Counted from the stretch's first letter, positions 3,373 to 35,325 are shown. The stretch is 37,750 nt of DNA from Patescibacteria group bacterium (GCA_038064935.1 JBBTRZ010000010.1:1-37750), one strand, 5' to 3'. A program made the numbers and translations. Notes: generated by a model not told the origin, from the sequence alone.

Positions 3373-3410
3373 AAAAGACCCATTCCGTGAACCGGCGGAA
3401 TGGGTCTTTT
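3373..3410. terminator. Bidirectional intrinsic terminator
   Basis: AAAAGACCCATTCC-10 nt-GGAATGGGTCTTTT between convergent genes. Confidence 0.85.
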
Positions 3411-3438
3411 GGGGTCTGATGGGTTTTCAGCCAAGTTT

Positions 3439-3861
3439 TTAATCGAGGATTTTTGGTGGCGGTCGGTGGCGCTTTTTTCGTAGCGATTGGAGTGAACGAA
3501 TCACTTCACGGGGAAGATTAACTGATCCGTCAACGGAATAATTAATCCACCGAGTGTCAGCGATCTCTAATGGATTCGGTCGAATGATTCCATCATCTGT
3601 TTCCACTAGAAAGATTGTTATCTCTCGGTGATTGTGACCTGATGGGGCGAAGTGGCGAAAGACTTCGGGGACACCACAAATTGACAGTCCGATTAATTTC
3701 TCACTCAATTCGCGCAACAGAGTTTCCAAAGGACTCTCGTTTGGCTTGGCGGTGCCACCGGGTAGAGACCATTGGCCGTTTGGTTCACGAACGATCAATA
3801 CCTCGCTATTCTTCTCAAAAATCGCTCCACTGACTTTGACTAACTCTTTTACCTTGGACAT
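3439..3861 (-). CDS. NUDIX hydrolase
   Basis: WSLPGG.....E.......REL.EK, a Nudix box with the last Glu replaced by Lys; strong SD AGGGAGG. Confidence 0.8.
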   Translation of the reverse strand: MSKVKELVKVSGAIFEKNSEVLIVREPNGQWSLPGGTAKPNESPLETLLRELSEKLIGLSICGVPEVFRHFAPSGHNHREITIFLVETDDGIIRPNPLEIADTRWINYSVDGSVNLPREVIRSLQSLRKKRHRPPPKILD

Positions 3862-3932
3862 AAATGTCCTCCCTTCTTCAACTCTTATAGCACAATCATA
3901 TTATTTTTGCTACAATCGGTTTATAAAATTAT

Positions 3933-4127
3933 ATGTCAAAAGATTGGACTGAAATATACAGGAAATATAAGGGTTTATGGGTGGCGTTGGCCGAAGATGA
4001 GGAGACGGTTATCTCCTTTCATAGAATCGCCCGTCAAGCTTTGGAACAGGCCAAAAGTAAAGGTTGTAAAAACCCAATTCTTACTCGGGTCCCAGAAGAC
4101 TTGAAAACATTTGTCGGTAGTTTATGA
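3933..4127 (+). CDS. Small protein, DUF5678-like
   Basis: Y.KYKG.WVAL.....VI.......A...A...G...P pattern; stop overlaps the next ATG (ATGA). Confidence 0.7.
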   Translation: MSKDWTEIYRKYKGLWVALAEDEETVISFHRIARQALEQAKSKGCKNPILTRVPEDLKTFVGSL

Positions 4128-4525
4128 AATTTCGCTACAAAAGATATGGTAACGAAATAGTTAGACCAGTTATCCCGATTGGATTGAAGCTCGGTGATAG
4201 TAAGGTTGATTACGAAGTGTTGGTTGATTCCGGTGCCGACATATGTATCTTCCATGCAGAGATGGGAGAATTAATTGGTATTGATATTGCCAAAGGAAAA
4301 CCGCAAGAAATTTTTGGTGTGGGCGGAAAAGCATCGCTATATTATCTTCACAAGGTAATTATTGAAGTTGGTGGCTGGCCGCACGAAATTGAAGCTGGTT
4401 TTATGCCCAGCGTGGCTGGTCGAGTAATGAGATATGGGTTGGTTGGCCAGCGAGGATTTTTCGATATCTTTGTTGTCAAATTTGACCTTTTGAAAGAGGA
4501 AATTGAATTAAAAAAGAGAATCTGA
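4124..4525 (+). CDS. Retropepsin-like aspartyl protease
   Basis: RPVIPI, LVDSGAD catalytic motif, GVGG flap, GLVGQ.GFF. Confidence 0.8.
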   Translation: MKFRYKRYGNEIVRPVIPIGLKLGDSKVDYEVLVDSGADICIFHAEMGELIGIDIAKGKPQEIFGVGGKASLYYLHKVIIEVGGWPHEIEAGFMPSVAGRVMRYGLVGQRGFFDIFVVKFDLLKEEIELKKRI

Positions 4526-4527
4526 CT

Positions 4528-4718
4528 ATGAACCAAATAAAATTCGGGAAATATCAGCATTATAAAACCCAAAAAAATTACGAAGTGATTGGCGTGGCGC
4601 AGCATAGTGAGACGCTTTTGGCGAGAATGCTTTATGGGTCCGGCCGATAAAAATGTTTCTGGAGATGGTTGAATTTGAAGGTAAAAAAGTGCCGCGGTTT
4701 AAGTATCTAGAATTATGA
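4528..4718 (+). pseudogene. DUF1653-family gene with internal deletion and frameshift
   Basis: One frame gives MNQIKFGKYQHYKTQKNYEVIGVAQHSETL; a shifted frame gives GENALWVRPIKMFLEMVEFEGKKVPRFKYLEL; the usual EELVVY.ALY segment is missing. Confidence 0.75.
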
Positions 4719-5038
4719 TCACTTACGACGAATTTAAGAAAGTGGAACTCAAGATCGGGGAAATAAAAACCGCCGAGCGCGTGGTGGGGTCCGAGAAATT
4801 GCTTAAGCTCGCGGTGGAGATAGGCGGAGCCGCGCCGCGGCAGATTATCGCGGGGATTGGGAAAGTTTATGAGCCAGAAACTTTGCTGGGCAAGCAGATT
4901 GTGATCGTCACCAATCTCGAACCGCGGATAATTATGGGCCTCGAGAGTCAAGGTATGGTCCTCGCGGCCGACGGCGCGAGCGGCCCCGTTGTTCTTCTTC
5001 CCGAACGGTCAGTCGCGACTGGAGCGATGCTTAAGTAG
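4715..5038 (+). CDS. Stand-alone tRNA-binding OB-fold protein (MetG C-terminal/Trbp111/CsaA family)
   Basis: ITYDEF.KVELKIG.I..AE.V.GSEKLLKL, NLEPR..MGLESQGM.LAA. Confidence 0.9.
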   Translation: MITYDEFKKVELKIGEIKTAERVVGSEKLLKLAVEIGGAAPRQIIAGIGKVYEPETLLGKQIVIVTNLEPRIIMGLESQGMVLAADGASGPVVLLPERSVATGAMLK

Positions 5039-5045
5039 AATTTAA

Positions 5046-5624
5046 ATGAAAAAAGTTAAGCGTTGCGTTTGGCCCGGGACGGATCCGCTCATGATCGCTT
5101 ATCACGATACTGAATGGGGTGTGCCGTGTCGCAATGATCAGAAACTTTTTGAGTATATGATGCTCGACACTTTCCAAGCCGGTTTGAGTTGGCAAATTAT
5201 TTTGCGGAAACGCGAGAATTTCCGGCGCGCTTTTAGCAATTTCGACGCGTCGAAAATTGCCTGTTATTCCGAAGCGAAATTGGCTAAACTCTTGGCTGAT
5301 CCGGGTATCATTCGCAATCGCTTGAAAATTAAAGGGACGGTCAAGAATACCCAAGCCTATCTGCAAATCCAAAAAGAGTTCGGTTCTTTTGCCGACTACT
5401 TGTGGTCGTTTGTCGCTAACCAACCGATTATTCATCGACATCAGCGTGATAGCCAAATTGCCGCCTCCAATCGAGAGTCTGATGCTTTAAGTTTCGATCT
5501 CAAACATCGCGGTTTCTCGTTTGTCGGCACTACAATTTGTTATGCCTTCATGCAGGGTGCCGGCTTAATAAACGACCATTTAACAAGCTGTTTTAGACAT
5601 GTCCAAGTTTCTCCGCAGAAATAA
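5046..5624 (+). CDS. tag: DNA-3-methyladenine glycosylase I
   Basis: RC.W, YHD.EWG.P, FQAGLSW..IL.KRE.FR.AF, IIRNRLKI, NDH..SC. Confidence 0.95.
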   Translation: MKKVKRCVWPGTDPLMIAYHDTEWGVPCRNDQKLFEYMMLDTFQAGLSWQIILRKRENFRRAFSNFDASKIACYSEAKLAKLLADPGIIRNRLKIKGTVKNTQAYLQIQKEFGSFADYLWSFVANQPIIHRHQRDSQIAASNRESDALSFDLKHRGFSFVGTTICYAFMQGAGLINDHLTSCFRHVQVSPQK

Positions 5625-5630
5625 TATGAC

Positions 5631-6494
5631 TTATCGAGATTTGAACCCGCGTTGGAAGTCGGCGTAAGCCATCTCCCGCTTCCCTTCGGGTTTAACCTTT
5701 TCGATCACTAGTTGATTGTCGGTGAGGTAGGCCGCGGTAATAATGACTCGCACTTTTCTGCCGTGGCGTTCGACGAAAAAATAAGTGCCGACGGAGCCAT
5801 AATGGGCGAGGAATTTACGGTAATTAATTATCGGGTTCTCGGCTAAGTCAATCAAGCCATCTTCTTTTTTGATTTTCTTGGTGTAAGTGGCGCGATCATG
5901 ATCTTGGGGCGCGGATTTAATTCCCCCCTCGACGAAACGCACCGCGGTGTCGAGAAATAATTTAGCGCCTAGTTTAGCTAACTGGTCCCTAAGTTCAATA
6001 AAGTTTTGCGTTTTTAGTTTTACGCTTTCCATTTTTAGGCTCGGGCCGTGGTCGAGTTTCTCGTCAAGGAGCATGAGGGTGACGCCAGTTTCGGTGATGC
6101 CGTCTAAGATGGCGCTTTGAATTGGCGTTGGGCCCCGGTAGGCGGGCAAGAGCGAGGGATGAAGATTAAGCGTGCCGTGTTTAGGTAGGTCAAGAACGGC
6201 CGCGGGAATAAGTTTGCCGTAAGAAGCGACGAGAAATAACTTATAGGGGATAGCTTCTAGCTTATAGGGGATAGTTTTTAGATTATCGGGTTGAATGCAG
6301 GGGGTGCCATTATTTTCGGCCCAGAGTTTGACGGGTGGGGGAGTGAGTTGGAGATATTTGCCTCGTGGTTTATCGGGGATCGTGACAATAAGTTCCGGTC
6401 GACAATCAGCTTTTTTTAGTTCATCAAGGACCATGACGGCAAATTCGTCTGTCCCGAAAAAAGCGAAGTTGGGAAAGTTAATCAAATTAACCAT
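5631..6494 (-). CDS. fmt: Methionyl-tRNA formyltransferase
   Basis: FFGT..FA, NLHPSLLP.YRGP.PIQ, GVT.M..DE.LD.GP; follows def. Confidence 0.93.
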   Translation of the reverse strand: MVNLINFPNFAFFGTDEFAVMVLDELKKADCRPELIVTIPDKPRGKYLQLTPPPVKLWAENNGTPCIQPDNLKTIPYKLEAIPYKLFLVASYGKLIPAAVLDLPKHGTLNLHPSLLPAYRGPTPIQSAILDGITETGVTLMLLDEKLDHGPSLKMESVKLKTQNFIELRDQLAKLGAKLFLDTAVRFVEGGIKSAPQDHDRATYTKKIKKEDGLIDLAENPIINYRKFLAHYGSVGTYFFVERHGRKVRVIITAAYLTDNQLVIEKVKPEGKREMAYADFQRGFKSR

Positions 6495-6984
6495 GGACGA
6501 CATTGCGAGCATGATCAATGAAGAGAACTCCGTCGAGATGCTCGATCTCGTGCTGGAAGACTTGAGCCATTAACCCTGAGGCGTGGTGAATTAATTTCTT
6601 ACCCGTCGCGTCGAAGGCCGCGACACTGACTCGTTCATAGCGTCGAGTGACACCATAATAATCCTTGACGCTCAAACAGCCCTCGGTGCATTCGATTTGT
6701 CGGCGCGAGCGGCGAGTGATGATCGGGTTCACGAAGACGAGATCATGAGACCACGACTGTGTCAGATCGCGTTCGGGGAAGGCGCGCCGCCCGACGATAA
6801 ACACTCGCCACGCCTCGCCAATCTGCGGCGCGGCGAGAGCGACGCCATCAGGCGAGGCCGAGAGGGTGGCTGACATCTTGGCAATCAGTTGGTCAAGCCA
6901 CGGTGACGGCAGATCACTGATTGGCACCGCTTGAGCAAGTTGGCGGAGTACGGGATCGGGATTTTGTCTAACACGTAGGATCAT
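6487..6984 (-). CDS. def: Peptide deformylase
   Basis: GVALAAPQIG, EGCLS, QHEIEHLDG. Confidence 0.95.
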   Translation of the reverse strand: MILRVRQNPDPVLRQLAQAVPISDLPSPWLDQLIAKMSATLSASPDGVALAAPQIGEAWRVFIVGRRAFPERDLTQSWSHDLVFVNPIITRRSRRQIECTEGCLSVKDYYGVTRRYERVSVAAFDATGKKLIHHASGLMAQVFQHEIEHLDGVLFIDHARNVVHG

Positions 6985-6990
6985 AATAAT

Positions 6991-8886
6991 TTAGAGCAAA
7001 CTGTCCGGGTCGACATCAATGACGAAAGCTGGTGGCAGAGATTTCAATTGCTCGAGGAGAGCGGGTTCCGGCCAATCATTCGGCCGGCGTTTGATGAGGA
7101 GATGCAGGCGGTATTCGCCGGAGATGACCGGGATAAAAGCGGGGAAAACTTCCGGCTCGTAGCTTGCCAGTTGATCGGCCAAAGTTTTCATTGCGAGCCG
7201 CACTTGGGCTCGTTCACCGGAGAGAGCAACTTTGATAAAGGTTTGGAAGGGCGGATAGCCGTATTGTTTGCGTTCGGCAATTTCCGTTCGATAGAAATCG
7301 AGGAGATTTCCCTTGAGCGCCTGATCGAAGAGACGCACCCGGACATTCCTAGTTTGAATAATAAATTGTTTGGTCGTGAGCGCGCGGAGCCGGATTAGAA
7401 GCCCGAAGACTCGCTCATTGATACGATAGTCGGGAAGAGCGAAGAGCGAGTCCAGCGCGACGATGGCTACATTCTCAATCCGTTCCTTGAGATAATAGAG
7501 GGCGAGTTCGGTGCCGAGAAGGACACTACCGGGGGTCGAGAGGAAGCGTTTAATCGTGGCCCCCGGCACAGAGCCGCCGCGGACGCTGTCACTGTCGAGT
7601 TTGAAGAGGCGAAGTCGCGGAAAATGCTCTTCGAGTTCGCGGGCCACTCGATCAATGCCGATACCCAATTCCAAAAGCCGCCAGCCGCCGCAGTGGCGGC
7701 ACTTCTCGGCGGCACTCCGCCTCGCCCCACACCGATGACAGATAAAAATTGTTTCCGCGCCGTCTTCTTCCATCCCCGCAGGGTGAAGCACTGTCGGCGC
7801 TTCACAATTATCGCACTCGACGGTCGCGCCACAATCTTGACAGATGACGACTGGAGCCAAACCGCGACGGTGAGTGAAGAGAAAAATTTTCTCATTCCGT
7901 TTCTCCACTTCGGCAATAGTAATAAGGAGTTCATCGCTCAACACTCGGAACTCGGTCGTCGGCATCTTCTTGACGGCAATCAAGGTCTGGGTGGCATTGG
8001 AAGCGGCATGGTGCTTCAGGGTAGCGAGCGGCTCGATTTCACCTTGATCAGCCCGATAAGCCGTCTCGGTTCGAAGCACCGCATCACCTAAAACAAAAGT
8101 CGCTTCCGACGCTTCCGCCAGATACTCGGCGAACCGACGATGATCGAGGAAGGGGCGAGCTGAAGATTTATAAGTTTGAGTGTTTTCTCGATCAACGATA
8201 ATCGCCCGAATGTCGGTTCGCGGCAGGGATAAGAAGATCGGGGTGGCGATAATAAGGATCGGGTGAGTGAGATCGAGCGCGCGTTGCCAAGCGGTCGTGA
8301 GTTCACGGGTCGAGAGTTGGTGATGTAAAGCAATAGTGTATTCACTGATACCGCGCTCGAGTGACGCGACCGCACGCGTCACATCAATGACCGTTGGTAG
8401 ACACATGAAGACCGATCCGTGTTTGGCGAATTCGGCTCGGATCAAACTTTTATAATACGCTTGTCGTTCATCGTCGGGTTCTTGGAGGACAAATTTTTCG
8501 CCGGCCGCGCGCGGTTCGTCTTTGGATTCCTTGGCCACTCGGAGGGTGACTTTCGCCTCGAGAATTTTCGTCGGGACCAAACTCTTGAGTGTCAGACCAA
8601 GCGTTGCCGCGGCATAGTCGGCCGTCTGACGCGCGGCGACCATGAAAGAGGTAGTGAAGAATCGTTCGTGCTTGACGCGGATAATTTTCTTGAGTGGGTA
8701 ATCGGCCTTCTTGACTGCCAGCTTAAGTTCGTCCGCGGCTCGGACTTGGGTAACCAGAGCCGAAATCGTCCGACCCCGCAACGGGACCGAGACAATCGCT
8801 CCGGGTCCGACCGCCTCGCCGGTGAAATAAGTCAATTCTTCACGACTAATTCCCCTCGCGATGGGGATAACACTGACGATTTGCAT
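6991..8886 (-). CDS. priA: Primosomal protein N' (PriA-like, helicase motifs degenerate)
   Basis: N-terminal 3'-DNA-binding region, RRG plus four CxxC zinc pairs, IIQT, YPPF; no intact Walker A. Confidence 0.85.
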   Translation of the reverse strand: MQIVSVIPIARGISREELTYFTGEAVGPGAIVSVPLRGRTISALVTQVRAADELKLAVKKADYPLKKIIRVKHERFFTTSFMVAARQTADYAAATLGLTLKSLVPTKILEAKVTLRVAKESKDEPRAAGEKFVLQEPDDERQAYYKSLIRAEFAKHGSVFMCLPTVIDVTRAVASLERGISEYTIALHHQLSTRELTTAWQRALDLTHPILIIATPIFLSLPRTDIRAIIVDRENTQTYKSSARPFLDHRRFAEYLAEASEATFVLGDAVLRTETAYRADQGEIEPLATLKHHAASNATQTLIAVKKMPTTEFRVLSDELLITIAEVEKRNEKIFLFTHRRGLAPVVICQDCGATVECDNCEAPTVLHPAGMEEDGAETIFICHRCGARRSAAEKCRHCGGWRLLELGIGIDRVARELEEHFPRLRLFKLDSDSVRGGSVPGATIKRFLSTPGSVLLGTELALYYLKERIENVAIVALDSLFALPDYRINERVFGLLIRLRALTTKQFIIQTRNVRVRLFDQALKGNLLDFYRTEIAERKQYGYPPFQTFIKVALSGERAQVRLAMKTLADQLASYEPEVFPAFIPVISGEYRLHLLIKRRPNDWPEPALLEQLKSLPPAFVIDVDPDSLL

Positions 8887-8950
8887 TATTTCACCATAAC
8901 ATATTTTCTGTTTTTTTCCACTAAATCTGTTTTTGTATTATAATTCCAGT

Positions 8951-11415: not shown

Positions 11416-11426
11416 TTTATAAAATT

Positions 11427-11771
11427 TTAGTCGGTAATGCCGAAAACGATCTTTAAATTTTCGACGACTTCTTTTTGGATATTTGGTCCAACCCGCCCCA
11501 ATTTGCCGAGAATTATTTTCTTGTTTATGGCAGCCATTTTTCGCAATCTGATAACCGAGTCAATCTTCAAACCAGTTTTCTCAAATTCGGGGGACGATTT
11601 TTTGATCAAAATATCAACTTGATCTCGGTAAATTAATTGTGAAGAAATAAACGCCACAATCACATCATCATCTTTTAGCTCGGACGATAATATCACGGCT
11701 GGCCTCACCTTTTCCCCCGACAGATCGGTGAAGGGGAAGACGGTCAGAACGATTTCCCACTTTTTATACAT
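11427..11771 (-). CDS. PemK/MazF-family toxin
   Basis: IVL..FPFTD.SG.K.RPAVILS, TGL..DSVIR. Confidence 0.9.
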   Translation of the reverse strand: MYKKWEIVLTVFPFTDLSGEKVRPAVILSSELKDDDVIVAFISSQLIYRDQVDILIKKSSPEFEKTGLKIDSVIRLRKMAAINKKIILGKLGRVGPNIQKEVVENLKIVFGITD

Positions 11772-11772
11772 G

Positions 11773-12015
11773 CTATTTCTTCAAATCGTCAACAGAATAC
11801 AATTCTGGCTCGTCTTTAAGGAAATCAAAGCCACCGGCATTGGCTACGAAGTTAGTCCATTCATCCAATTCCCGGTTTAAATAATCTGGGTATTTTATCA
11901 TCAGGACTTCTGGTCGATTATGCCGACCGATACCTAAGGTTAAATTGTTTTCCCTGACAGATGCGACAAACCGGCCCAATTGCTGTCGCGCGATAGTGGT
12001 GCTGACAATCTTCAT
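11773..12015 (-). CDS. Phd/YefM-like antitoxin
   Basis: MKIVSTT.AR..L...V..V......I.R..RP.V.M resembles the Phd N-terminus; acidic C-tail; directly upstream of the toxin. Confidence 0.7.
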   Translation of the reverse strand: MKIVSTTIARQQLGRFVASVRENNLTLGIGRHNRPEVLMIKYPDYLNRELDEWTNFVANAGGFDFLKDEPELYSVDDLKK

Positions 12016-12021
12016 GGGATG

Positions 12022-12049
12022 ATTGTACCTTTTGTACATTTATTGTCAA
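12022..12049 (-). promoter_or_regulatory. TA promoter with overlapping TGTAC-N5-GTACA operator
   Basis: TTGACA-16 nt-TACAAT, ATG 6 nt later; palindrome at 12024-12038. Confidence 0.7.
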
Positions 12050-12117
12050 TTAAAATATTTGAGTAGTTGGGGATAAACCAGATTGGCCGTTCTTGATCGG
12101 TGCTATAATTCAAGCCA

Positions 12118-17659: not shown

Positions 17660-17684
17660 AAAAAGGGACACGCGATGTGTCCCT
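17660..17684 (-). terminator. Intrinsic terminator of the orphan cassette
   Basis: AGGGACAC-5 nt-GTGTCCCT followed by a U run on the minus strand. Confidence 0.75.
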
Positions 17685-17750: not shown

Positions 17751-18209
17751 TTAACTGGCGAGAAGAGATTCGAGATACTCGAGTTCTCGCTTGATCTCAT
17801 CTGGCGGCATTCGTCTTATTCGATAGAACTCTGCGAGCTCATCGGGATCGTTGGGATTAAATCCAGTTTCCTTAACCCGAACATCGCGCTCTAAAATAAT
17901 TATTTCATCTACCGACAGAGCGGAAAGGAGAAAGCGCTCAGCTTCGGTAACCCCCTCCATTGAAATCGAATAATACACATCATAACGCCCAGGATAGCCC
18001 GGCCTGATTTTCCCCACTTGATGACCAAGATTATCCGCCTTGGTGACACCAAGATTGATAAGTTTCTGTAGAGCCCAATCACTAACTAATCCCTCATTAT
18101 ACAAGCCATTAATGTGGTCTCTCCAAAATGTGGCGGATTGCCTCTGTTCGGCAATTTGATCCCTAATTTTCTTGTCTCCAGAACCATGTTGCCGGTTTTT
18201 CTTGGACAT
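17751..18209 (-). CDS. Hypothetical protein (orphan cassette)
   Basis: 152-aa ORF with AAGGA SD, own promoter (TTGACT-17-TTTAAT) and terminator. Confidence 0.7.
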   Translation of the reverse strand: MSKKNRQHGSGDKKIRDQIAEQRQSATFWRDHINGLYNEGLVSDWALQKLINLGVTKADNLGHQVGKIRPGYPGRYDVYYSISMEGVTEAERFLLSALSVDEIIILERDVRVKETGFNPNDPDELAEFYRIRRMPPDEIKRELEYLESLLAS

Positions 18210-18447: not shown

Positions 18448-18519
18448 GGCCCTATCGTCTAACGGTTAGGACATCGCCTTCTCAAGGCGGCAATCCGGGT
18501 TCGATTCCCGGTGGGGTCA
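18448..18519 (+). tRNA. tRNA-Glu (anticodon CTC), CCA not encoded
   Basis: Cloverleaf: GGCCCTA/TGGGGTC acceptor, TCGCC-TTCTCAA-GGCGG anticodon arm, CCGGG-TTCGATT-CCCGG T arm. Confidence 0.96.
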
Positions 18520-19807: not shown

Positions 19808-19924
19808 ATGAAAAATTACGACAAGACAGGGAAGCAAGATGGTCGGCCGGCGTACCGCACGCCGTCGTGGTTCCGCTCCCAAAAAACACAATTCAAGAAA
19901 AGTTTCCGCAAACCGAGTTTATAA
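19808..19924 (+). CDS. Possible small basic protein (38 aa)
   Basis: ATG 14 nt after the rmuC stop; stop coincides with the start of the terminator hairpin. Confidence 0.3.
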   Translation: MKNYDKTGKQDGRPAYRTPSWFRSQKTQFKKSFRKPSL

Positions 19925-19950
19925 AAAAACCGCCATCAGGAGACAGCGGT
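19923..19950 (-). terminator. Intrinsic terminator
   Basis: ACCGC...GCGGT stem followed by a U run on the minus strand. Confidence 0.6.
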
Positions 19951-19973: not shown

Positions 19974-20516
19974 TTAGCAAATACATTGGCGGGGGAATAT
20001 GTCTATGCCTTCTTGAACCAATCGCAACATCGCTACGCCGATAGAAACATTGAATTCTTGCGCCACGGGGCCAGCTTTTAGAAGACAAGTTGGTAAAACC
20101 AAACTCAAGTATCTGCGAGGAAGTCTACTTTCACCAACATGATCCACCAACATTCGCTTTTCGTGGGCTAGAGTGAGTTTGAATTCGACAAAATCTGCAT
20201 CATCCATAGTTTCGGCTACAGCCAAAGCGTCGTCAGCAAAAGGACTTAATTCTTTCAAACCTTGACGCAAATCCTCCAGAGTCTGTACCTTGCTAAGAAA
20301 ATGAGCATAATCTTCTTCTTCGTATTCTACCCCGTTGCCATCCCGGTTATCCCCAAAAGAATAGATGTCTCCTGACCATCTCCCTGTCACACGGCAAATG
20401 GTGGGGAGAGAAAATTCCCCGAGAGGGTAACTTATATTATTTAGTTTTTTCTCTATTTCTTTTTCCCGTAGCTCTAATTTTTTGGGACCAATTCTTAGTT
20501 TTCTTGGTTGGTTCAT
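19974..20516 (-). CDS. Hypothetical protein (orphan cassette)
   Basis: 180-aa ORF, strong SD AAGGAGAGGT, promoter-like TTGCTT-17-TAGTGT. Confidence 0.7.
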   Translation of the reverse strand: MNQPRKLRIGPKKLELREKEIEKKLNNISYPLGEFSLPTICRVTGRWSGDIYSFGDNRDGNGVEYEEEDYAHFLSKVQTLEDLRQGLKELSPFADDALAVAETMDDADFVEFKLTLAHEKRMLVDHVGESRLPRRYLSLVLPTCLLKAGPVAQEFNVSIGVAMLRLVQEGIDIFPRQCIC

Positions 20517-21719: not shown

Positions 21720-21757
21720 ATTGTCAAGTGGGCGGGGAGGGGATTGTAGGGTAGGAT
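21720..21757 (+). repeat. Direct repeat copy 1 (promoter segment upstream of the PIN TA module)
   Basis: 32/38 identical to 22441-22478. Confidence 0.8.
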
Positions 21758-21764
21758 GGGGGGC

Positions 21765-21956
21765 ATGCTTACTACTATCGAAAAACCTATTTTGCAAGCG
21801 CGACGGGAGATTGCCACTGTTTTGCGTCGTTATCGATTGGGGTGGGAAGAAGTTGCTCCCGATCGTGATTATTTGATTTGGAAAAAATTAAAGCCCTTGG
21901 CTAAAAGGGTGCGCAAGGAATTATTCCGCCAGTCGTATCCGTCTTTGGTTAAATGA
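21765..21956 (+). CDS. Putative antitoxin
   Basis: Small basic ORF translationally coupled (ATGA) to the PIN gene. Confidence 0.6.
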   Translation: MLTTIEKPILQARREIATVLRRYRLGWEEVAPDRDYLIWKKLKPLAKRVRKELFRQSYPSLVK

Positions 21957-22399
21957 TTGAGTCGTCGCCGGTCAAAGTTTTTCTCGATTCAAGTGTTATC
22001 ATTGCCGCCACTCTTTCTTCAACGGGCGGCTCTTTTCGTTTATGTCGCGAATGTCGAGACCACCATTTAATCGCTTACATTAATCAGTATGTTCAAGATG
22101 AAGTGCGCGAGGCGTTTGCCCGTAAGTATGTCTCTACTATCGATAAAATAAATTTACTGTTGGAATGGAGTAAAATTAATATTATCCCTAATCCCAAACC
22201 AGATTTTGTTAGAAAGATTGGGAATTTAATAAATTTAGAAGATGCTCCAATATTGGCTGGCGCATTAGGTAGCGAAGTTGATTTTTTGGTTACCCTGGAT
22301 CGCAAGGATTTCATGACACCAAAATTAAAGAAGTTTTCTCTTCCAACCATTATCACCACGCCTCAAGATTTTTTTCAACAACATTGGAATGGAAAATAA
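21953..22399 (+). CDS. PIN-domain (VapC-like) toxin
   Basis: VFLDSSVIIAA, E, DAPILAGA, LVTLD.KDF. Confidence 0.88.
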   Translation: MIESSPVKVFLDSSVIIAATLSSTGGSFRLCRECRDHHLIAYINQYVQDEVREAFARKYVSTIDKINLLLEWSKINIIPNPKPDFVRKIGNLINLEDAPILAGALGSEVDFLVTLDRKDFMTPKLKKFSLPTIITTPQDFFQQHWNGK

Positions 22400-22440: not shown

Positions 22441-22478
22441 ATTGTCAAGTGGGCGGGAGCGGGAGAATAGGGTAGGAT
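22441..22478 (+). repeat. Direct repeat copy 2 (rplU promoter segment)
   Basis: Ends in TAGGAT 7 nt before the rplU ATG. Confidence 0.8.
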
Positions 22479-22833: not shown

Positions 22834-22869
22834 AAAAGACTCGAGCGTGCTTTCGCACGATCGAGTCTT
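22832..22869. terminator. Terminator between rplU and the orphan operon
   Basis: AAGACTCGA-G-CGTGC-TTTC-GCACG-A-TCGAGTCTT with an A run (U run on the minus strand). Confidence 0.8.
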
Positions 22870-22920
22870 GATGAGGTTTCAGTACGAAGTCGTCCTTCCG
22901 AACTCTGTATTGCTTTCCTG

Positions 22921-23406
22921 CTAGATCGTTGCATCCGAGTAACGCACACACTCCACAGCATCGTCCTTATCTTGCAAAAATGCTTGGAATTTCTCGTAGT
23001 CATGGACTACCAAGGTTACAACAGCGCAACCCTTGGTACCGTTGTCCAAGTATCTCACATTGACCTGACGGATAAAAAGAACTTTTTCCTCCGCATCAAC
23101 CATCTCCCGGAGCTTGGTGAAAACTGCCCGAGCTCGCGGTATACGCAAGTGACGACACAAGTCTTTGAATACTGTTTCCACAAGATCTTGGACTATGTCA
23201 AAGTCTGTGAGTTTGTCCGAATGGACCGCCTGATGGAGTTCACGGAGGTACTCCGCGGTAAATTCATCTCGGAAGATACCGCGGTCAATCTCTCCGCGCA
23301 ACTCTATCAACATCTTGATCCCGTCTGCCGTCAGTTCCGTATCGCGGATGAGAAAAGCCAAGACGCCCCAGAATTGAAGCAACTTCTCAATCTCAATCTT
23401 CTTCAT
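22921..23406 (-). CDS. Hypothetical protein (orphan cassette)
   Basis: ATG preceded by AAGGAG SD; alternative in-frame ATG at 23439. Confidence 0.7.
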   Translation of the reverse strand: MKKIEIEKLLQFWGVLAFLIRDTELTADGIKMLIELRGEIDRGIFRDEFTAEYLRELHQAVHSDKLTDFDIVQDLVETVFKDLCRHLRIPRARAVFTKLREMVDAEEKVLFIRQVNVRYLDNGTKGCAVVTLVVHDYEKFQAFLQDKDDAVECVRYSDATI

Positions 23407-23418
23407 TACAAACTCCTT

Positions 23419-23475
23419 TGGCGTTAAGGTTATCGCCATACCTAAGCTGTTTTAAGACGATTGCTTAAACGTCTT
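23419..23475 (-). ncRNA. Tandem H-type pseudoknot leader, copy 1
   Basis: 46/57 identical to 23914-23970; 8 of 11 differences are compensatory. Confidence 0.7.
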
Positions 23476-23583
23476 TGGTTTAAAAGAACTTCCGATTCAT
23501 CCTTTTGGAATCATCAGTCGAGATACACATCTCGATTCGGAGAGAGTTTTAATGGTTAACTCTCGAACCCAGTGGCGATACCA

Positions 23584-23901
23584 CTATTCAACCTCCTCCA
23601 CCTTTAGGCCGATCACTTTGCCGATAGTTTCCAGGGCATTTTTACCCTGGTGGTTCGGCAGGCCGTTTGGCAGGAAGATCCAACCCCCAAGGACAGATAC
23701 TAGGTGTCCAAGCCCCTCACTGTTCAGACGATGTGTAATCTGTTTAACCCTTGATTCACAAGTCTCACAGAAACAGCACATGATCTGACAAGCGGTAAAT
23801 TGGGCACTGACGAGAACCTGTCTCGGCCTATTCCAACCTTCCACCTTGACCTTAATGACGTGGGCGTCGTTGTCATTTCCGATACGAAGGTCTGCAAGCA
23901 T
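23584..23901 (-). CDS. Hypothetical Cys-rich protein (orphan cassette)
   Basis: CQIMCCFCETC cluster; AAAGAG SD-like; alternative in-frame ATG at 23934. Confidence 0.65.
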   Translation of the reverse strand: MLADLRIGNDNDAHVIKVKVEGWNRPRQVLVSAQFTACQIMCCFCETCESRVKQITHRLNSEGLGHLVSVLGGWIFLPNGLPNHQGKNALETIGKVIGLKVEEVE

Positions 23902-23913
23902 GGGAACTCTTTC

Positions 23914-23970
23914 TGGCGTTAAGGTTATCGCCATACCTGTCCTGTTTTGAAACGAGTGGACAAACGTTTG
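23914..23970 (-). ncRNA. Tandem H-type pseudoknot leader, copy 2
   Basis: Covarying copy of 23419-23475. Confidence 0.7.
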
Positions 23971-24022
23971 CTGTTACTGCCAACGCGACAATTACAGCCA
24001 AAATCAAAAAACTACCTGTTCC

Positions 24023-24053
24023 TAGCTTAGCATAAGTGATGGCTATTTGTCAA
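24023..24053 (-). promoter_or_regulatory. Promoter of the orphan operon
   Basis: TTGACA-18 nt-TAAGCT with a TG extension. Confidence 0.6.
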
Positions 24054-24733: not shown

Positions 24734-24762
24734 TGGATCAAACCAAAATTTTTTAAAATAAA

Positions 24763-26127: not shown

Positions 26128-26209
26128 AGCTTCTGATTGTAGCACAGACCCGAAGTGGCAAAAGCCCCTTGAGTTAATCAAAAGGGGATGGTTGGGGGAC
26201 AAAAATTAA

Positions 26210-28509: not shown

Positions 28510-28590
28510 ATGAACTTGTCCCCCAGTATATCGCCCGCTCTCGTTGACCGCAAGCGAGCAAGGTGCAATAATCTTCTTAAGTTTTACTTT

Positions 28591-29838: not shown

Positions 29839-29874
29839 CTTGATCGCGGAGAGGGGATAGGGTATATTAGCGGG

Positions 29875-30384
29875 ATGAAAGTTATCTTACTTAAAGATGT
29901 GCCAAAGCTGGGGCGACAATACGAAGTGAAAGAAGTTAAGCCGGGTTACGCCCGGAACTTCATTTTAGCGCGCGGGTTGGGAGCAATGGCGACGAAAATA
30001 ACTTTAGCCCAAGCTGATTTCAAACGGCAGGGGAGGGAAGCGGCCCTGATCGAGAAACGTGAACGATTAGCTAAAGAAGCTAGCGAACTGGAGAAGGTCA
30101 CAATCCGACTTACGAGGCGGGCTAATGATTTGGGTCACCTCTTCGACGGACTTGATGCTAATGATTTGATCAAAGCTCTGCGGTCGCAAACTAATTTTGA
30201 TCTCGAATCTGATTGGATCGCATTGCCACGCCCGATCAAAGAGTTGGGAACGCACACCATTCCCGTGAGTCACGGCGAGACAAAAACCAGCTTCCAGCTC
30301 ATCGTCGAACCGGAAGCCGACGCCACGGCAATCAAAAAGGCGATGGCTAAGAAACGCTCACCTGCTTCACCAATCGCTGGCTAG
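29875..30384 (+). CDS. rplI: 50S ribosomal protein L9
   Basis: [11 protein letters not shown]....V.EVK.GYARNF. Confidence 0.95.
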
Positions 30385-30619
30385 AGTCGTAATTAGTTTT
30401 TCGCTTCGTTTTAAAATTAACGGTGCCGTTGGTTAAAGCAAAAATCGTATGATCCTTGCCAAGCCCGACATTTTTCCCCACCGTGAAGTAAGTCCCGCGT
30501 TGGCGGATAATAATTGCGCCGGGCTTCGCGAGGGCACCGTGAGGAAGCTTCACCCCCAGATATTTGGGATTGGAGTCGCGCAAATTCCGCGCGGTACCGC
30601 CAGCTTTACGATGGGCCAT
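30347..30619 (-). CDS. rpmA: 50S ribosomal protein L27
   Basis: MAHRKAGG...[28 protein letters not shown]. Confidence 0.96.
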
Positions 30620-30624
30620 AGACC

Positions 30625-31002
30625 ATGAGCATAACTGAACGCTTAAATAAAATCAAGCCCGTGATTCTGCCACTTAACCTCGTCCTCATTGGGACGCTCG
30701 GTTTCGGCCTCGGGCGTTATACGCGGATTGAGGAGGCGAAGGTACCGGTCATGATTGAGCAGACAACTTCGACAACAGCTTCAGGAACTTCGGTCACGGC
30801 TTCACCTAAAGAAGCTTCTGAAACTATCGAAGCTAAATCTGCCGGAACCTTGGTTGGTTCGAAAAACGGCACGAAGTATCACTACCCGTGGTGTGGTGGT
30901 GCCTCGCGGATTAAAGAAGAAAATAAAGTGTGGTTCGCTTCCAAAGAAGAAGCGTTAAGTAGGGGATATACCCCCGCCGCCAACTGCCCGGGGTTGAAAT
31001 AA
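30625..31002 (+). CDS. Membrane-anchored protein with an Ada-type metal-binding C-terminal domain
   Basis: TM, Thr/Ser linker, GSK.G.KYH.PWC...I...N..WF.S.EEA...GY.P..NC. Confidence 0.75.
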
Positions 31003-31418
31003 AAAACCCTGAAACCACGTAAGTGATTCCAGGGTAACCCACGCACCTTGTCTACCCCGACAGCGGAGCGTTTCTTTGGGGGTCTGGGAATTTTGACCCT
31101 TGTAGCTTCCAGTTGTAACGGGTAAGAAGCAAACCCGGCATCGAATCGATCGTTTCAGTAGCTTCAGTAATCGTTGGGGTTTAGATGGTCTAGCGTTCGA
31201 TGCCCGACCTTTTCCATTTTCACCACAACGGTCAATTCATCTGGTGGCGGATGAATCAACAAGACAACACCCGCGTGCCACCAATCCCTTGCTTGCTTCC
31301 GGCCTATACGGGTTATAGGGCAGAAGGAGGAGGGACAAATTGGGGGCTCATTTCCAAGCTTGCACCTCGTTAGCCAGGAAACTTAATACATTCATGTATC
31401 TTGAGCCCTCAACTTCTA
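31001..31418 (-). ncRNA. Candidate large structured ncRNA (about 420 nt)
   Basis: TTGACA(31452-31447)-16-TATACT(31430-31425) promoter, terminator 31001-31035, many helices, no ORF of 60 aa or more. Confidence 0.55.
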
Positions 31419-31528
31419 CCAGCCAGTATACACGAATACTAAATCCTGTCAAGGTCGGGGAGTGGAAGGGTTTAATTATTTAGATTGGGTCGCACAATAT
31501 ACCTTTTCCGTCCTGACCCAGTTGATTT

Positions 31529-31978
31529 TTATACACCCCAGCATTTTTCGCTCCAGTGCCAAGGCCGATCGCCGTCGCGGGCCATGAGCCACATGGCGTA
31601 GCCGATATTCCCTTCGGCCGTGTAAATATCGAAGCCAACCGTGCGACTCTGTTCTAAGTGATATTTCTCATTAATCTGGAAGACACCGACATCGCTCCGA
31701 TTTTTCCGACCACGCACTAATGACCCATCGGGATGGTATTGCTGGAGACGACTCTCACACCGGGCAATTTCGAGCGCCGCGGTCCCATCCACGCCGTAAT
31801 GGGCGCTGGACTCCTTAATGAGCTCGGAGACGGTATAGCCGCGCATTTCCACCACCGCCGGTTGGGTGGCAAAATTTGCGCTCGGGGGATTGACCGTGCC
31901 ACCCACGGCTCCAGTGGCCAAAGAAGCTAGTTGAGACAGAGCCGTCAAGCCGGTTAGACCAATAGTGTTGAAGTTCAT
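31529..31978 (-). CDS. Secreted lysozyme-like/lytic transglycosylase domain protein
   Basis: IARCES catalytic Glu, GVFQIN, NI.YA..L....G..PW..S..CW. Confidence 0.8.
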   Translation of the reverse strand: MNFNTIGLTGLTALSQLASLATGAVGGTVNPPSANFATQPAVVEMRGYTVSELIKESSAHYGVDGTAALEIARCESRLQQYHPDGSLVRGRKNRSDVGVFQINEKYHLEQSRTVGFDIYTAEGNIGYAMWLMARDGDRPWHWSEKCWGV

Positions 31979-31989
31979 AATTTAAGTAG

Positions 31990-32085
31990 CAAAACAGGTC
32001 AGGCAGTAATGCCTAACCTGTCAAATTAGCTTTGTAATATAAGGGTATTTGGTCAACCTAATCTAATCACCCCAAACACCCAAGC
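31990..32085 (-). promoter_or_regulatory. Structured 5' leader with a terminator-like hairpin before the transglycosylase gene
   Basis: Promoter TAGACA-17-TAGGTT; hairpin GGGUGUUUGG/CCAAAUACCC; 12-bp hairpin 31994-32021 followed by UUU. Confidence 0.5.
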
Positions 32086-32113
32086 CAAACCTAGCATACT
32101 TCCCTCCCCTTGT

Positions 32114-32221
32114 CTAGTTTTGAAACACCGACACTATTTTGTCAATAATGGGTCGCAAGTCAATGTCAAAGTAGATTAGAGCCGCGACCACGATGACAAT
32201 TAATAGAATAAACTTAATCAT
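32114..32221 (-). CDS. Small membrane protein (35 aa, MIKFILLIVIVVAALIYFDIDLRPIIDKIVSVFQN)
   Basis: Single TM; ATG 13 nt after the M23 gene stop; below the ORF-track cutoff. Confidence 0.6.
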   Translation of the reverse strand: MIKFILLIVIVVAALIYFDIDLRPIIDKIVSVFQN

Positions 32222-32234
32222 ACTGGCAAATTTA

Positions 32235-33512
32235 TCATAAATAGATCAGGGGATCAAGGTAGGCATCGACACTGATGAGAGGCATGTTGATTTTAGCCCC
32301 GGTACAAGATTTGAAAGCATATTCGCCGACCTTCACCCCTTGAGTCGCGACCACTCCCAAATGTAAATGCGGACCGGTTGAGTAACCGGAGTTGCCGCTA
32401 TAGGCAATCACTTCGCCCGTTGCGATCGTGGCCCCGGCCACGGCCTTAATCAGTGAGAGGTGGCCGTAGACAGTGCTCAAGCCGTTCGCGTGCTTCATGA
32501 GCACCCACTTACCGTATGAAGCGCCAGGGCAAGCGCGATCGGTATCTCCCACAGCGGTAATTACCCCAGTGAGAGTGGCTTTGACCGGTGTGCCAAGAGC
32601 GGCCCGAAAGTCAACACCATTGTGCGTCCCCGAGACATAGAGTCGCTTGGCATCAACCGTTTTGCCGAAGCGTTGGGTGATAAAAATATTATCGAGTGGC
32701 CAGGCAAGGATTCCCTTCCCGGCTGGCGGGATGCTCTTAGGATCAATAATAATTCTTAATTGTGACTCGAAATCAAAGAGTTCCCGCTCGAACGCTTCCT
32801 TCTTGGCCTCCGTCGAGGTCAGAAGGGTTCGATAATTGGCTTCTTTATTCTTTGTTAATTTAAGCAAGCGATCCTTCTCGGTCTTGTTCTCTTCGGCCAA
32901 CACTTTCTGATCGGCGAGTCGCAGCCGCAGACGGTTGAGTTCGAGTTGCTCCTTCTCGGTCGCCGACTTCGAGACTTCCAGCTCATCTCGCAGGGAACGG
33001 AGACTGGAGATGTCGCTCTGGACCTGACCCTGGAGGACCGCCGACCGGTCAAGCTCATTCCAGAAATCGGCGAGGTGGGAAAATCCAAGCATGATCTCAA
33101 ACAAGGATTCGTGGTCGCGATCACGCCACTGCCGCAGACTCTCGCCCAAGGCGATTCGCCGATCACTCACCGTCTGATTTTTACGCCCGATCTCGAGGGC
33201 GATCTTCTCGATCTCGAGTCGGGCGCGTTCAATCTTATTCTCGGTCACTTGAATATCAGCCGCGAATTTCTTGCGAGTCGTCTCAAGTCGCTTGATCTCG
33301 CCTTCTAGCCCCGAGGCCGTTTTCACCGTCGCCGAGAGCTCTCGCCTGAAGCCCTCGATCTCGACTTCCAACCGCTTGATCTCGTTAGTATGGTCGCCAA
33401 TGCGGGAGCGCAGTTCTTCGACCGTGGCAGAATTCGCCGTGCCGAACGCGGCGATAAACGCAAGTGTCGCGACCAAAAATAATATGGTCACTCCCCTACT
33501 ATTGCGAATCAT
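32235..33512 (-). CDS. Coiled-coil M23 peptidase (EnvC/murein hydrolase activator-like, metal ligands intact)
   Basis: Signal peptide, long coiled coil, HNGVD, YGHL, STGPHLH. Confidence 0.88.
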   Translation of the reverse strand: MIRNSRGVTILFLVATLAFIAAFGTANSATVEELRSRIGDHTNEIKRLEVEIEGFRRELSATVKTASGLEGEIKRLETTRKKFAADIQVTENKIERARLEIEKIALEIGRKNQTVSDRRIALGESLRQWRDRDHESLFEIMLGFSHLADFWNELDRSAVLQGQVQSDISSLRSLRDELEVSKSATEKEQLELNRLRLRLADQKVLAEENKTEKDRLLKLTKNKEANYRTLLTSTEAKKEAFERELFDFESQLRIIIDPKSIPPAGKGILAWPLDNIFITQRFGKTVDAKRLYVSGTHNGVDFRAALGTPVKATLTGVITAVGDTDRACPGASYGKWVLMKHANGLSTVYGHLSLIKAVAGATIATGEVIAYSGNSGYSTGPHLHLGVVATQGVKVGEYAFKSCTGAKINMPLISVDAYLDPLIYL

Positions 33513-34800
33513 GAAAAATTTTTCGCAAACGCGCCAGCGTTTCGGCTTGGCCTAGAATCTCGGCTAGGGTGAAGGGATCCGGCGATCGCTCCTTCCCGGT
33601 TAAAACTACGCGCATGGTGGAGAGAACCGCCGCTCGACCCGCCTCATCAGCGTAAGGCATAAGCACCGATTTGATTATTTGGCTTTGGAAATCGGCGCCG
33701 GGGATAGATTCTAGCAAGGTGATAGTCTTGCTTAAGGTGGTTGGGGCCTTCAATAAATTTTTATCCACGATTGGCGGGGCTAGAAAATAATCATATTCAC
33801 CGCTTTCAATTAGGGTGTGGCCTTCGGTCAAAGTCGAGACGCGCTCGCGGATAATTGGCGTTACTTTGGCGCGGAGTGCTGACGGCCAATCGTTGGGAAA
33901 AATGTCGTCCCAGATTGATTCCGGTACCCGGCGCAAGTATTCGCGGTTTAGCCAGTTAAGTTTCTCAAGATTGAAAATTGCCCCCCCTTTTTGAATACGG
34001 TCGAGTGAAAATTGTTTGATTAATTCTGACCTAGAAAATATTTCTTGATCCGTGCCGGGGTTCCAACCGAGCAAAGCCAGATAATTTAGGAGTGCGTCGG
34101 GTAGAAATCCTTGACCGCGATATTCGGTAACGCTCACTGCGCCATGTCTTTTTGATAATTTAGATCGATCGGGCGCAAGGATAAGCGGGATGTGAGCGTA
34201 GATTGGCCGCAGCACTTTAAGCGCCTCTTGGATCAAGATTTGTCGCGGCGTGTTGGAGATGTGATCTTCGCCGCGAATCACATGGGTCACCCCCATCTGC
34301 CAATCGTCCACCACGACCGCGAAGTGGTAGAGTGGCTCGTCGAGACTCTTGGCGATGACGAAGTCACCGAGCTCGGTGGTATCAAAACTGATCTCACCCC
34401 GAATCAGATCTTGGAAAATAATTCTCTGCCCCGGATTGCGCAGGCGAATCACCTCTCCCCTCTTCGTCTTGTCGTTGTTGGTATTATTAATGTCTTCTTT
34501 AGAAATATAAGCCGTGCCAGCCGAAATTAATTTCTCCAACGCTTCACGATAAATTGCCGTCCGCTCCGATTGGCGGTAAATTTCGTCAAAATCGAGCTCG
34601 AGCCACTTGAGACTTTCGAGAATATCCGCCTCAAACTCGGAGTTAGATCGTTCGCGGTCAGTGTCTTCGAAACGCAAAATAATTTTACCACCCATTTGCT
34701 TGGCAAATAAATAATTAAACAGCGCGGTTCTAGCGCTACCGACATGGAGCGGCCCCGTCGGACTCGGCGCAAACCGCACAATCACTGGTGTTGTTGGCAT
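33499..34800 (-). CDS. gltX: Glutamate--tRNA ligase
   Basis: RFAPSPTG.LHVG.ARTAL, HVIRGEDH, KLSKRHG. Confidence 0.95.
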   Translation of the reverse strand: MPTTPVIVRFAPSPTGPLHVGSARTALFNYLFAKQMGGKIILRFEDTDRERSNSEFEADILESLKWLELDFDEIYRQSERTAIYREALEKLISAGTAYISKEDINNTNNDKTKRGEVIRLRNPGQRIIFQDLIRGEISFDTTELGDFVIAKSLDEPLYHFAVVVDDWQMGVTHVIRGEDHISNTPRQILIQEALKVLRPIYAHIPLILAPDRSKLSKRHGAVSVTEYRGQGFLPDALLNYLALLGWNPGTDQEIFSRSELIKQFSLDRIQKGGAIFNLEKLNWLNREYLRRVPESIWDDIFPNDWPSALRAKVTPIIRERVSTLTEGHTLIESGEYDYFLAPPIVDKNLLKAPTTLSKTITLLESIPGADFQSQIIKSVLMPYADEAGRAAVLSTMRVVLTGKERSPDPFTLAEILGQAETLARLRKIFHDSQ

Positions 34801-34953
34801 ATTGCGTCCATTCTAGCAACCAGTTCAATTTTAAGGAAATCAAATATTTTAACCATCGCTAAAAAACATTATTATAAGCCATATTCTATCAATTTACCCA
34901 CAAAATCATCTACAAACGCTTGACAATATTTATGGTTTGTGTATACTGGTGGG

Positions 34954-35325
34954 TAGACTTGAAAATTAAGTAGTTGCAGAAGAGGGTAAGGATCGGTAGC
35001 TCCAAAAAAGCCAGCGTGGTGCTCAGTCACGAAACACTGGGCGTTCCAAAATGAACAGGTTAGGGTTTTCTGTCTTTGGCCCAAAAGCACCAACCCCCTA
35101 CCTTATTCTGTATGCTTCCGAGTAACGCCATGAATTCCACTGGGAAGTGTTATGTCTACCAATCGATACAGTCACAGCCCTGTGCTGATTTATGCTGCCA
35201 ACGATTGGATCAAGGATGTATTACAAGTGGAAACTCTCTGATTTAGGGAAAGTCTAGCCAACTAACCCAATGAGATCAGCGAGTAATGGTTGAACCCCCG
35301 CTATGGCGATGGGGGTTTTTCTTTT
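34954..35325 (+). ncRNA. Candidate large structured ncRNA (about 370 nt)
   Basis: TTGACA(34920-34925)-16-TATACT(34942-34947), plus-oriented terminator 35293-35325, nested helices, only short ORFs. Confidence 0.5.

Follow-up and report, generated by a model that had tools for sequence, protein, structure and literature searches.

Putative accessory transcription units next to core-gene 3' ends of a Patescibacteria genome include a probable remnant of a hammerhead-punctuated operon and a structured RNA gene

Introduction

What are the six small units that stand among the housekeeping genes of one Patescibacteria contig, each facing a neighboring gene tail-to-tail, and do they form a single system? 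The contig (GCA_038064935.1, JBBTRZ010000010.1:1-37750), analyzed at its full length of 37,750 nt and called the window below, is the entire contig C10 of genome G000, whose assembly comprises 639,780 bases in 40 contigs and is 94% complete. Between positions 3,373 and 35,325 it contains a NUDIX hydrolase gene (unit 1), the genes U2 and U3, the two-gene operon U4 (U4a and U4b), and units 5 and 6, which are poor in open reading frames (ORFs). The original prediction, made from the sequence of the window, had united them in one modular expression-cassette system, dispersed through the chromosome and possibly RNA-mediated or acquired by transformation. The question is of general interest, as Patescibacteria, or the Candidate Phyla Radiation (CPR), make up a large share of bacterial diversity, and their gene expression has barely been studied.

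Our analysis supports this prediction in part: the units are real, but they do not form one system. They are probably accessory units of several kinds, each transcribed independently and placed where a core gene ends, in a genome where most core mRNAs seem to be leaderless. In particular, U4 appears to be a two-gene remnant of an operon punctuated by hammerhead ribozymes, and unit 5 is a new gene for a structured RNA, which stands alone and contains a covarying pseudoknot.

Signals of the six units and the search for common modules

The ORFs at 3439-3861, 17751-18209, 19974-20516, 22921-23439 and 23584-23934 and both ORF-poor stretches are located as had been predicted, and a terminator hairpin is visible in all six units (four are listed by the scan, and two, at 22837-22872 and about 35296-35325, were read directly). 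The other signals are less uniform. Promoters are listed for the NUDIX gene and units 5 and 6, and that of U4 was read directly, but the one of U2 is seen by eye and does not appear in the scan list, and none is listed for U3. All flagged units have a tail-to-tail neighbor, although the true neighbor of U3 is a 38-aa ORF (19808-19924, plus strand) and not rmuC. Shine-Dalgarno (SD) sequences, expected at the coding units and not at the core genes, precede the NUDIX gene, U2, U3 and U4b, that is, four of the five flagged ORFs, while U4a has only a weak one.

The claim that several units share RNA modules was not confirmed. The best match between units scores 24.3 bits, while random segments of the window average 22.6, with the 95th percentile at 26.3, and the boxA-like element has seven matches against 10.25 expected, i.e. 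below chance. The hammerhead-like motif is real, but among the units it is confined to U4, as is the structured leader in the whole of G000, and of the pseudoknots proposed for several units only the one in unit 5 is supported. As predicted, no integrase or transposase is present among the domains of the 41 scanned ORFs of the window, and neither is a reverse transcriptase. The notion of one expression-cassette system is supported as far as the units are self-contained and U4 is modular and RNA-punctuated, but not for the set, as the six units have no modules in common and differ in their distributions.

Foreign origin marked by nucleotide composition was rejected, since the GC content of the units (0.43-0.50) lies inside the genome range (0.485 +/- 0.064). 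A coding score based on codon usage was uninformative, being 0.10-0.22 for the orphans and 0.04-0.21 for antisense ORFs. U2, U3, U4a and U4b match no family in Pfam, PHROG, NCBIfam or PADLOC; moreover, neither U2 nor U4b had a usable match in the ESM Atlas, which models U2 with a predicted local distance difference test score (pLDDT) of 0.47.

U4, a putative hammerhead-punctuated operon

All parts of U4 lie on the minus strand between recR and rplU. The predicted transcript would start at the promoter TTGACA-18-TAAGCT (24024..24053, read directly) and carry a structured leader (23899..23975, the second copy in U4, identified as the 54-nt repeat D3 and in an alignment of six modules), U4a (23584..23934, a 116-aa orphan with an alternative start at codon 12 and the weak SD), a hammerhead type III-like element (23489..23546, delineated by alignment with relatives and probably decayed), another structured leader (23404..23488: helix UAAGC/GCUUA, hairpin GGCG/CGCC, then SD), U4b (22921..23406, 161 aa) and the terminator hairpin (22837..22872, aligned). 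The SD-led ATG of U4b, also used by gene callers, is codon 12 of the longer ORF 22921-23439.

Both proteins have few relatives. Among 1.84 billion representatives U4a has six distant ones (E<=1e-3). For U4b one relative has 68% identity; U4b is also 34% identical (E 2e-26) to the ORF of the last hammerhead module in an array of G018, a genome from a different genus of the same family.

The 57-nt stretch between U4a and U4b shows 89% identity to a stretch of G004, which is a Hammerhead_3 match in Rfam (36.6 bits, E 1e-5), though below the gathering threshold of the type III model RF00008 (48.5 bits). The U4 element itself has no Rfam match even at E<=10, and the whole of G000 has no RF00008 match. 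The best-scoring relative is G018, at 48.5 bits. At E<=0.01 the model finds 19 matches in eight of 30 relatives. In 150 further genomes from the order it yields 53 matches at E<=1e-4, spread over 29 of them, and in 14 control genomes none. These order-wide matches often form same-strand clusters, spaced by about 0.3 to 1.3 kb.

In an alignment of the U4 element with ten relatives CUGAUGA is invariant, GAAA is present in 10 of the 11 copies, and 12 of 16 base pairs show compensatory changes. In an active hammerhead the core contains GAAA, A15.1 pairs with U16.1, and cleavage takes place at an NUH triplet; a type III hammerhead has closed stems I and II and an open stem III. The U4 element retains CUGAUGA, the conserved core segment 5' of stem II, but breaks the core rule elsewhere, having GAA-U in place of GAAA, U/A in place of A/U at 15.1/16.1, and the cleavage triplet GAA, while all ten relatives have GAAA and U at 16.1. 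Its stems I and III are retained, with compensatory changes in stem III, and stem II is weakened, its first pair being U.U. By the NUH rule the G000 copy is probably inactive. The structured leader, aligned in the six modules, has compensatory changes in four of five pairs of the first helix, followed by the GGCG/CGCC hairpin and the SD.

The G018 array occupies the same recR|rplU junction and contains three intact type III hammerheads; its order is recR, a consensus promoter, a leader with ORF1, three hammerhead-leader-ORF modules, a NUDIX gene, and rplU in convergent orientation. Seen beside this array, U4 reads as what is left of such an operon, reduced to two genes. Orphans also predominate among the ORFs that relatives carry in their hammerhead arrays (nine of ten lack a PHROG match, and eight of ten lack a Pfam match). 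A separate observation is that in locus L104 (G032:C1) a TROVE-domain (Ro60-like) gene, ORF 1665-3053, is found about 110 nt 3' of a hammerhead, and that it matches the PHROG RNA-binding (TROVE) family.

Unit 5, a structured RNA

Unit 5 (31006..31418, minus strand) is a noncoding RNA (ncRNA) of about 410 nt with a conserved core at 31219-31386 and a terminator at 31006-31035. Its promoter TTGACA-16-TATACT (31425..31452, minus strand; 11 of 12 consensus positions) is conserved in G003 and G002. The RNA folds better than shuffled sequences (z = -3.44) and has no match at the gathering score among 4227 Rfam families, nor any at E<=10, including those for signal recognition particle (SRP) RNA and 6S RNA. 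Homologues were found by a covariance model built from three sequences in five of 31 genomes of the family, and by a second covariance model in one of 150 other genomes of the order; an exact-pattern search yielded five stretches among 185,579 species genomes, five in metagenome contigs, and none in viral contigs. Over all searches there are eight distinct sequences.

The structure is well supported. In six sequences 96.4% of the cells are paired and 13 of 38 pairs show compensatory changes, a result equaled by none of 500 shuffles, while slid controls reach 31-51%. The H-type pseudoknot, which is not a part of the model, pairs in 100% of the cells with two compensatory changes, and the two additional sequences show further changes in it, as judged by eye. 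Among the elements that do not vary are a loop resembling an SD and a strand resembling an anti-SD.

The neighbors of unit 5 vary by genome. The AdaZn|SLT site is common to three lineages (G000, G024 and locus L067), while in G002, G003 and G045 the RNA lies at three different sites, and it is also present in a distant family (G129). By these data unit 5 is a new stand-alone structured RNA gene, and a literature search returned no paper describing a CPR RNA like it. That it acts in trans, binding the ribosome or mRNAs, is a guess, and a link with translation is speculation.

Three other identities were considered for it and rejected. Housekeeping RNAs (RNase P RNA, transfer-messenger RNA (tmRNA), SRP RNA or 6S RNA) do not account for unit 5 or unit 6, as neither matches an Rfam model and the genes for RNase P RNA and tmRNA sit on other contigs (C2 and C19); unit 5, moreover, is present in only five of the 31 genomes of the family. 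The block resembling SRP RNA domain IV is a helix strand and not a tetraloop hairpin, and the SRP models gave no match. Finally, a 12-aa peptide containing PPP would be encoded in only four or five of the eight homologues, the ORF being absent or out of frame in the rest.

Unit 6 and a promoter common to the family

Unit 6 (34954..35325, plus strand; terminator hairpin at about 35296-35325) is an ORF-poor transcript candidate between gltX and mreB, preceded by the promoter TTGACA-16-TATACT (34920..34947, plus strand; 11 of 12 consensus positions), which recurs at the same gltX|mreB site in G003 (G003:C27). No Rfam match was found for it at E<=10, and we regard it as a candidate strain-specific transcript.

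The promoter regions of units 5 and 6 share a 39-nt stretch with 79% identity, but this likeness is not a trace of a mobile module. The consensus TTGACA-N11-TYGTG-TATAMT occurs 53 times in 22 of 31 genomes of the family and not once in the reversed control, and it precedes RRM-protein genes (six loci), SD-led orphans and ORF-less units; tRNA genes are present in three loci bearing it. Units 5 and 6 thus have in common a strong-promoter type used throughout the family.

A second ORF-less unit, of about 350 nt, was seen with this promoter and a terminator in loci L016 (G004:C53:1269-1640) and L039 (G010:C1, minus strand from 38452). Both copies adjoin the same ORF6N-like gene and have no Rfam match, making a possible second RNA family with no known match.

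Stand-alone genes: NUDIX, U2 and U3

The NUDIX hydrolase gene (3439..3861, minus strand; Pfam NUDIX, E 6e-13) has the SD GAAGGGAGGA six nucleotides before its ATG, and a promoter scoring 9 of 12 against the consensus. It shares with pyrG, encoded on the plus strand, a bidirectional hairpin terminator (3373..3410), recovered both as a 15-pair stem in the scan and as an inverted self-match. A match with 66% identity lies just 3' of pyrG in the congener G001 (G001:C25). The protein matches phage NUDIX families from PHROGs and a PADLOC candidate model. Kinship with the NUDIX gene of the G018 array beyond the domain itself was rejected, since the two proteins have only the NUDIX box in common.

U2 (17751..18209, minus strand) encodes a 152-aa ORFan with a leader of about 90 nt and the SD AAAGGATGAG; its terminator (17664..17684), listed on both strands, is shared with the pilin gene, and its promoter, TTGACT-17-TTTAAT, is weaker than the others. 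A search of 5.8 billion clusters returned only U2 itself.

U3 (19974..20516, minus strand) encodes a lineage-restricted protein of 180 aa and has the SD GAAAGGAGAGGTGG and a terminator (19929..19950, minus strand) facing the 38-aa ORF. Since the gene lies 68 nt 3' of gdh, with no terminator between the two and no promoter listed, it may be co-transcribed with gdh. Its homologues have 72% (G005, same site) and 39% identity, and dN/dS, the ratio of nonsynonymous to synonymous substitution rates, is 0.155 relative to G005 over 150 codons; U3 is therefore a real gene under purifying selection. In G001 it is absent, the flanking matches being 57 nt apart. The 38-aa ORF between rmuC and U3 is small, basic and conserved: a -10 box is located just upstream, and its first codons are nearly identical at the corresponding place in G002.

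Two styles of gene start

The position of motifs suggests that G000 is a genome dominated by leaderless transcripts. In most core genes of the window the start codon follows a -10-like box at a distance of 5-12 nt and lacks an SD. Genome-wide, in a set of 698 ORFs obtained by a crude greedy procedure, an SD 6-mer or longer stands at the first start of 21 ORFs, compared to 0.78% of random positions, and a 5-mer or longer at that of 45, compared to 4.0%. A 38-nt repeat with 84% identity (21720-21757 and 22441-22478), found directly 5' of an antitoxin-like 66-aa gene and of rplU, resembles a shared leaderless-type promoter ending a few bases before the ATG.

The minority of SD-led genes is modestly enriched in unknown families. 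Outside the window, Pfam matches at E<=0.001 were obtained for 11 of 26 SD-led ORFs (6-mer or longer containing GGAG, spacer of 4-9, at least 80 aa) and for 35 of 52 length-matched non-SD ORFs (Fisher p = 0.05), some of the latter looking spurious, which would understate the gap. Inside the window the proportions are one of four and 26 of 34, counted after exclusion of an antisense ORF and of two more that fall within unit 6. The pooled contrast (p = 0.004) is approximate, being calculated with 27 of 35 non-SD ORFs for the window. The SD-led set also holds ordinary genes, such as holB and genes for a methyltransferase and a radical-SAM enzyme.

Gain and loss at junctions

Synteny was compared between the window and five genomes of the same genus (G001-G005). 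None of the five has U4: their matches to recR and rplU are 3-24 nt apart, and the 3' ends of the two genes overlap; in G000 about 1.25 kb lies exactly inside this overlap, with an imperfect duplication of 9-10 nt. Unit 5 is missing from its own site in three of the five (G002, G003 and G004, with gaps of 27-36 nt), while homologues are present elsewhere in G002 and G003, and U2 has no DNA match in any of the five. The condition that was to refute the original prediction, cassettes being ancestral and syntenic in relatives, had a divided outcome: the NUDIX gene keeps its place in one congener (G001) and U3 in another (G005), while for U4 and unit 5 synteny extends to other genera although most congeners lack them.

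The same junctions hold different cargo in different genomes. At AdaZn|SLT there is unit 5 in G000, G024 and L067, a methyltransferase-like gene in G005, and nothing or almost nothing in G001-G004. The gltX|mreB junction of G003 contains the consensus promoter with a different SD-led orphan of about 170 aa. Given this exchange at recR|rplU, AdaZn|SLT and gltX|mreB, a few junctions act as hotspots.

Explanations compared

A mixed set of independently transcribed accessory units in a mostly leaderless CPR genome is, to our judgment, the probable explanation. Lineage-specific genes would carry an SD and a terminator because they bring along their own promoter and leader, and a transcript with a leader would need an SD in an organism that rarely uses one. 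The units would gather at gene 3' ends, and look convergent, because 3' junctions tolerate insertions. In the intact relatives of U4, type III hammerheads may cut the polycistronic RNA just 5' of each leader, and this cleavage would yield single-gene mRNAs with defined 5' ends. Gain and loss would proceed through recombination at a few junctions with no dedicated recombinase.

Several points weigh against this explanation. Every transcript start, end and cleavage site, as well as the leaderless status, is read from the sequence, the latter from motif position. A search for RNA runs covering 30600-35400 found none, and four DNA runs yielded just short contigs at low depth, with no reliable join across a unit. 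The Pfam contrast outside the window is modest, and its control set includes some spurious ORFs. The anti-SD sequence is only presumed, as 16S rRNA was not found in the G000 assembly, and the partial 16S locus of a relative, split by a group I intron, yielded no 3' end. U2 and U4a have no independent coding support, given that the codon score does not separate orphans from antisense ORFs. Unit 6 shows neither a fold signal (z = -0.84) nor conservation, its body having no match in 40 relatives. Finally, two genera have U4 at one common junction and three lineages have unit 5 at another, and ancestry with repeated loss would explain this sharing equally well.

As a separate observation, a group I intron match was recorded in the 16S rRNA 3' region of a relative, locus L075 (G012:C23), at about 1743-2702.

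Shared ancestry leads to the strongest of the rival explanations, by which the units are ancestral genes of the family, lost differentially during genome reduction and never acquired. It would account for the U4-type arrays of G000 and G018 at one junction, for unit 5 between AdaZn and SLT in the three lineages, for the synteny of NUDIX with G001 and of U3 with G005, and for the unremarkable GC content, but the tight recR/rplU overlap in five congeners would then require either one clean early deletion or several later ones, unit 5 would have to be explained at its three other sites (G002, G003 and G045) and in the distant family (G129), and U2 has no relative at all. As a description of the whole set we consider it rather unlikely.

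An equally tentative proposal goes beyond the mixed set. The hammerhead, the structured leader and the SD together might serve as a portable expression adaptor in this CPR order: self-cleavage would free an accessory ORF from a long transcript and define its 5' end, its translation in a cell whose own mRNAs are leaderless would be made possible by the leader and SD, and arrays of modules might be swapped between core genes by homologous recombination in the flanks after DNA uptake. Unit 5, by way of its invariant SD-like loop and anti-SD-like strand, might tune the translation of the SD-led minority in trans.

Origin from phages, with the units being morons or left over from prophages or from mobile elements of another kind, seems improbable. 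It is suggested by the phage-type matches of the NUDIX protein and by the one array gene of G032 with a PHROG match, and clustered hammerheads flanking single genes are indeed described for prophages (PMC3088659), of which such clusters are typical. Still, the flanks are housekeeping genes (pyrG, rplU, recR, gltX and mreB) and not phage genes, U2, U3, U4a and U4b and nine of ten array ORFs of relatives have no PHROG match, the pattern of unit 5 does not occur in viral contigs, and the GC content of the units is within the genome range.

A single family of modular mobile cassettes, moved by a common RNA- or recombinase-based mechanism, is very improbable: although all six units are self-contained and placed at 3' junctions, several are missing from empty sites of congeners, U4 is built from repeated RNA modules, and units 5 and 6 have similar promoters, the sequence sharing between units is within chance, this promoter likeness reflects the family-wide consensus, hammerhead and leader motifs occur in G000 only in U4 (RF00008 matching nowhere in this genome), the 41 window ORFs contain no integrase, transposase or reverse transcriptase domain, and the units are distributed differently among relatives. 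A new class of mobile elements is not supported.

Other features of the window

Most long ORFs of the window are housekeeping genes by Pfam, namely ftsX, pyrG, fmt, def, priA, rmuC, gdh, rplU, recR, dnaB, cysS, corA, rplI, gltX, mreB and murA and those for an S41 protease and an M23 peptidase; a tRNA-Glu gene is located at 18448-18519. Toxin-antitoxin-like pairs or toxin domains identified by Pfam are dense for 38 kb: a retropepsin-like gene with a 64-aa partner (3933-4525), PemK with Phd (11427-12039), PIN with a 66-aa partner (21756-22399) and a second PemK (189-578). The start of ftsX is repeated 5' of a PemK-like ORF (60 nt, 88% identity, 107-166 and 745-804), which may be a duplicated gene start or an assembly effect near the contig end. 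The contig ends (1-53 and 37696-37748) are perfect inverted copies of each other, 53 nt long, which most likely arose in assembly and are not a biological terminal repeat.

Comparison with known systems

Integron cassettes are promoterless, and each ends in an attC site. The units described here differ from them in having their own promoters and no common end motif (no dedicated attC model was run), and no integrase (IntI) domain is present in the 41 window ORFs. Phage morons, which are stand-alone promoter-gene-terminator units between conserved genes, are a closer parallel, as our units are likewise self-contained transcription units inserted between conserved genes and variable between relatives, but the prophage context is lacking and the orphans match no phage family. 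Flexible genomic islets, a concept from pangenome studies, are recombination hotspots between core genes. The recR|rplU, AdaZn|SLT and gltX|mreB junctions resemble them in holding different or no cargo across relatives, while differing in the small size of the cargo, from one to four tiny genes or else a gene for an RNA, with no integrase or tRNA attachment site.

Unit 5 is similar to the orphan structured ncRNAs of bacteria obtained through comparative genomics, as in the surveys from the Breaker laboratory (PMC5737381, PMC8632094), being intergenic and narrowly distributed, with its own predicted transcription, covarying helices and a pseudoknot. It departs from them in having no match in 4227 Rfam families and in being found only in groundwater Patescibacteria. 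Its pseudoknot is well supported, and it fits no known family.

As to the gene starts, leaderless-rich genomes are reportedly called 'group C' in the GeneMarkS-2 scheme. In such genomes, treated with two gene-start models, most genes have no SD and a promoter box close before the start codon, and a minority is leadered and SD-led (GeneMarkS-2, PMC6028130); the same is seen here. G000 differs from what is described there in that its SD-led minority is enriched for orphan and strain-variable genes, and our literature search found no paper pairing such a pattern of SD-led orphans and leaderless core genes with Patescibacteria. Two start styles in one genome, with the SD-led one marking orphan and strain-variable genes, can help in calling genes of CPR genomes and in recognizing those that are accessory.

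The closest known counterpart of U4 is the hammerhead clusters of prophages (Perreault et al. 2011, PMC3088659), which are proposed to cut long transcripts into mRNAs of gene length. There, as here, several same-strand copies flank single genes or short blocks of varying identity, and some copies have core changes; such copies are slow or inactive, as the U4 copy probably is. The CPR arrays differ in their surroundings, which are housekeeping genes (recR|rplU) and include no phage genes, in that all copies are of type III, and in that almost all ORFs are orphans. Moreover, in the family of U4 and the G018 array a conserved structured leader and an SD come after every ribozyme, and the copy in the window stands apart from the prophage hammerheads in its broken core rules. 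Type III hammerhead arrays between housekeeping genes are found in about one fifth of the sampled genomes of the order, and these chromosomal arrays would extend ribozyme-based mRNA processing beyond prophages.

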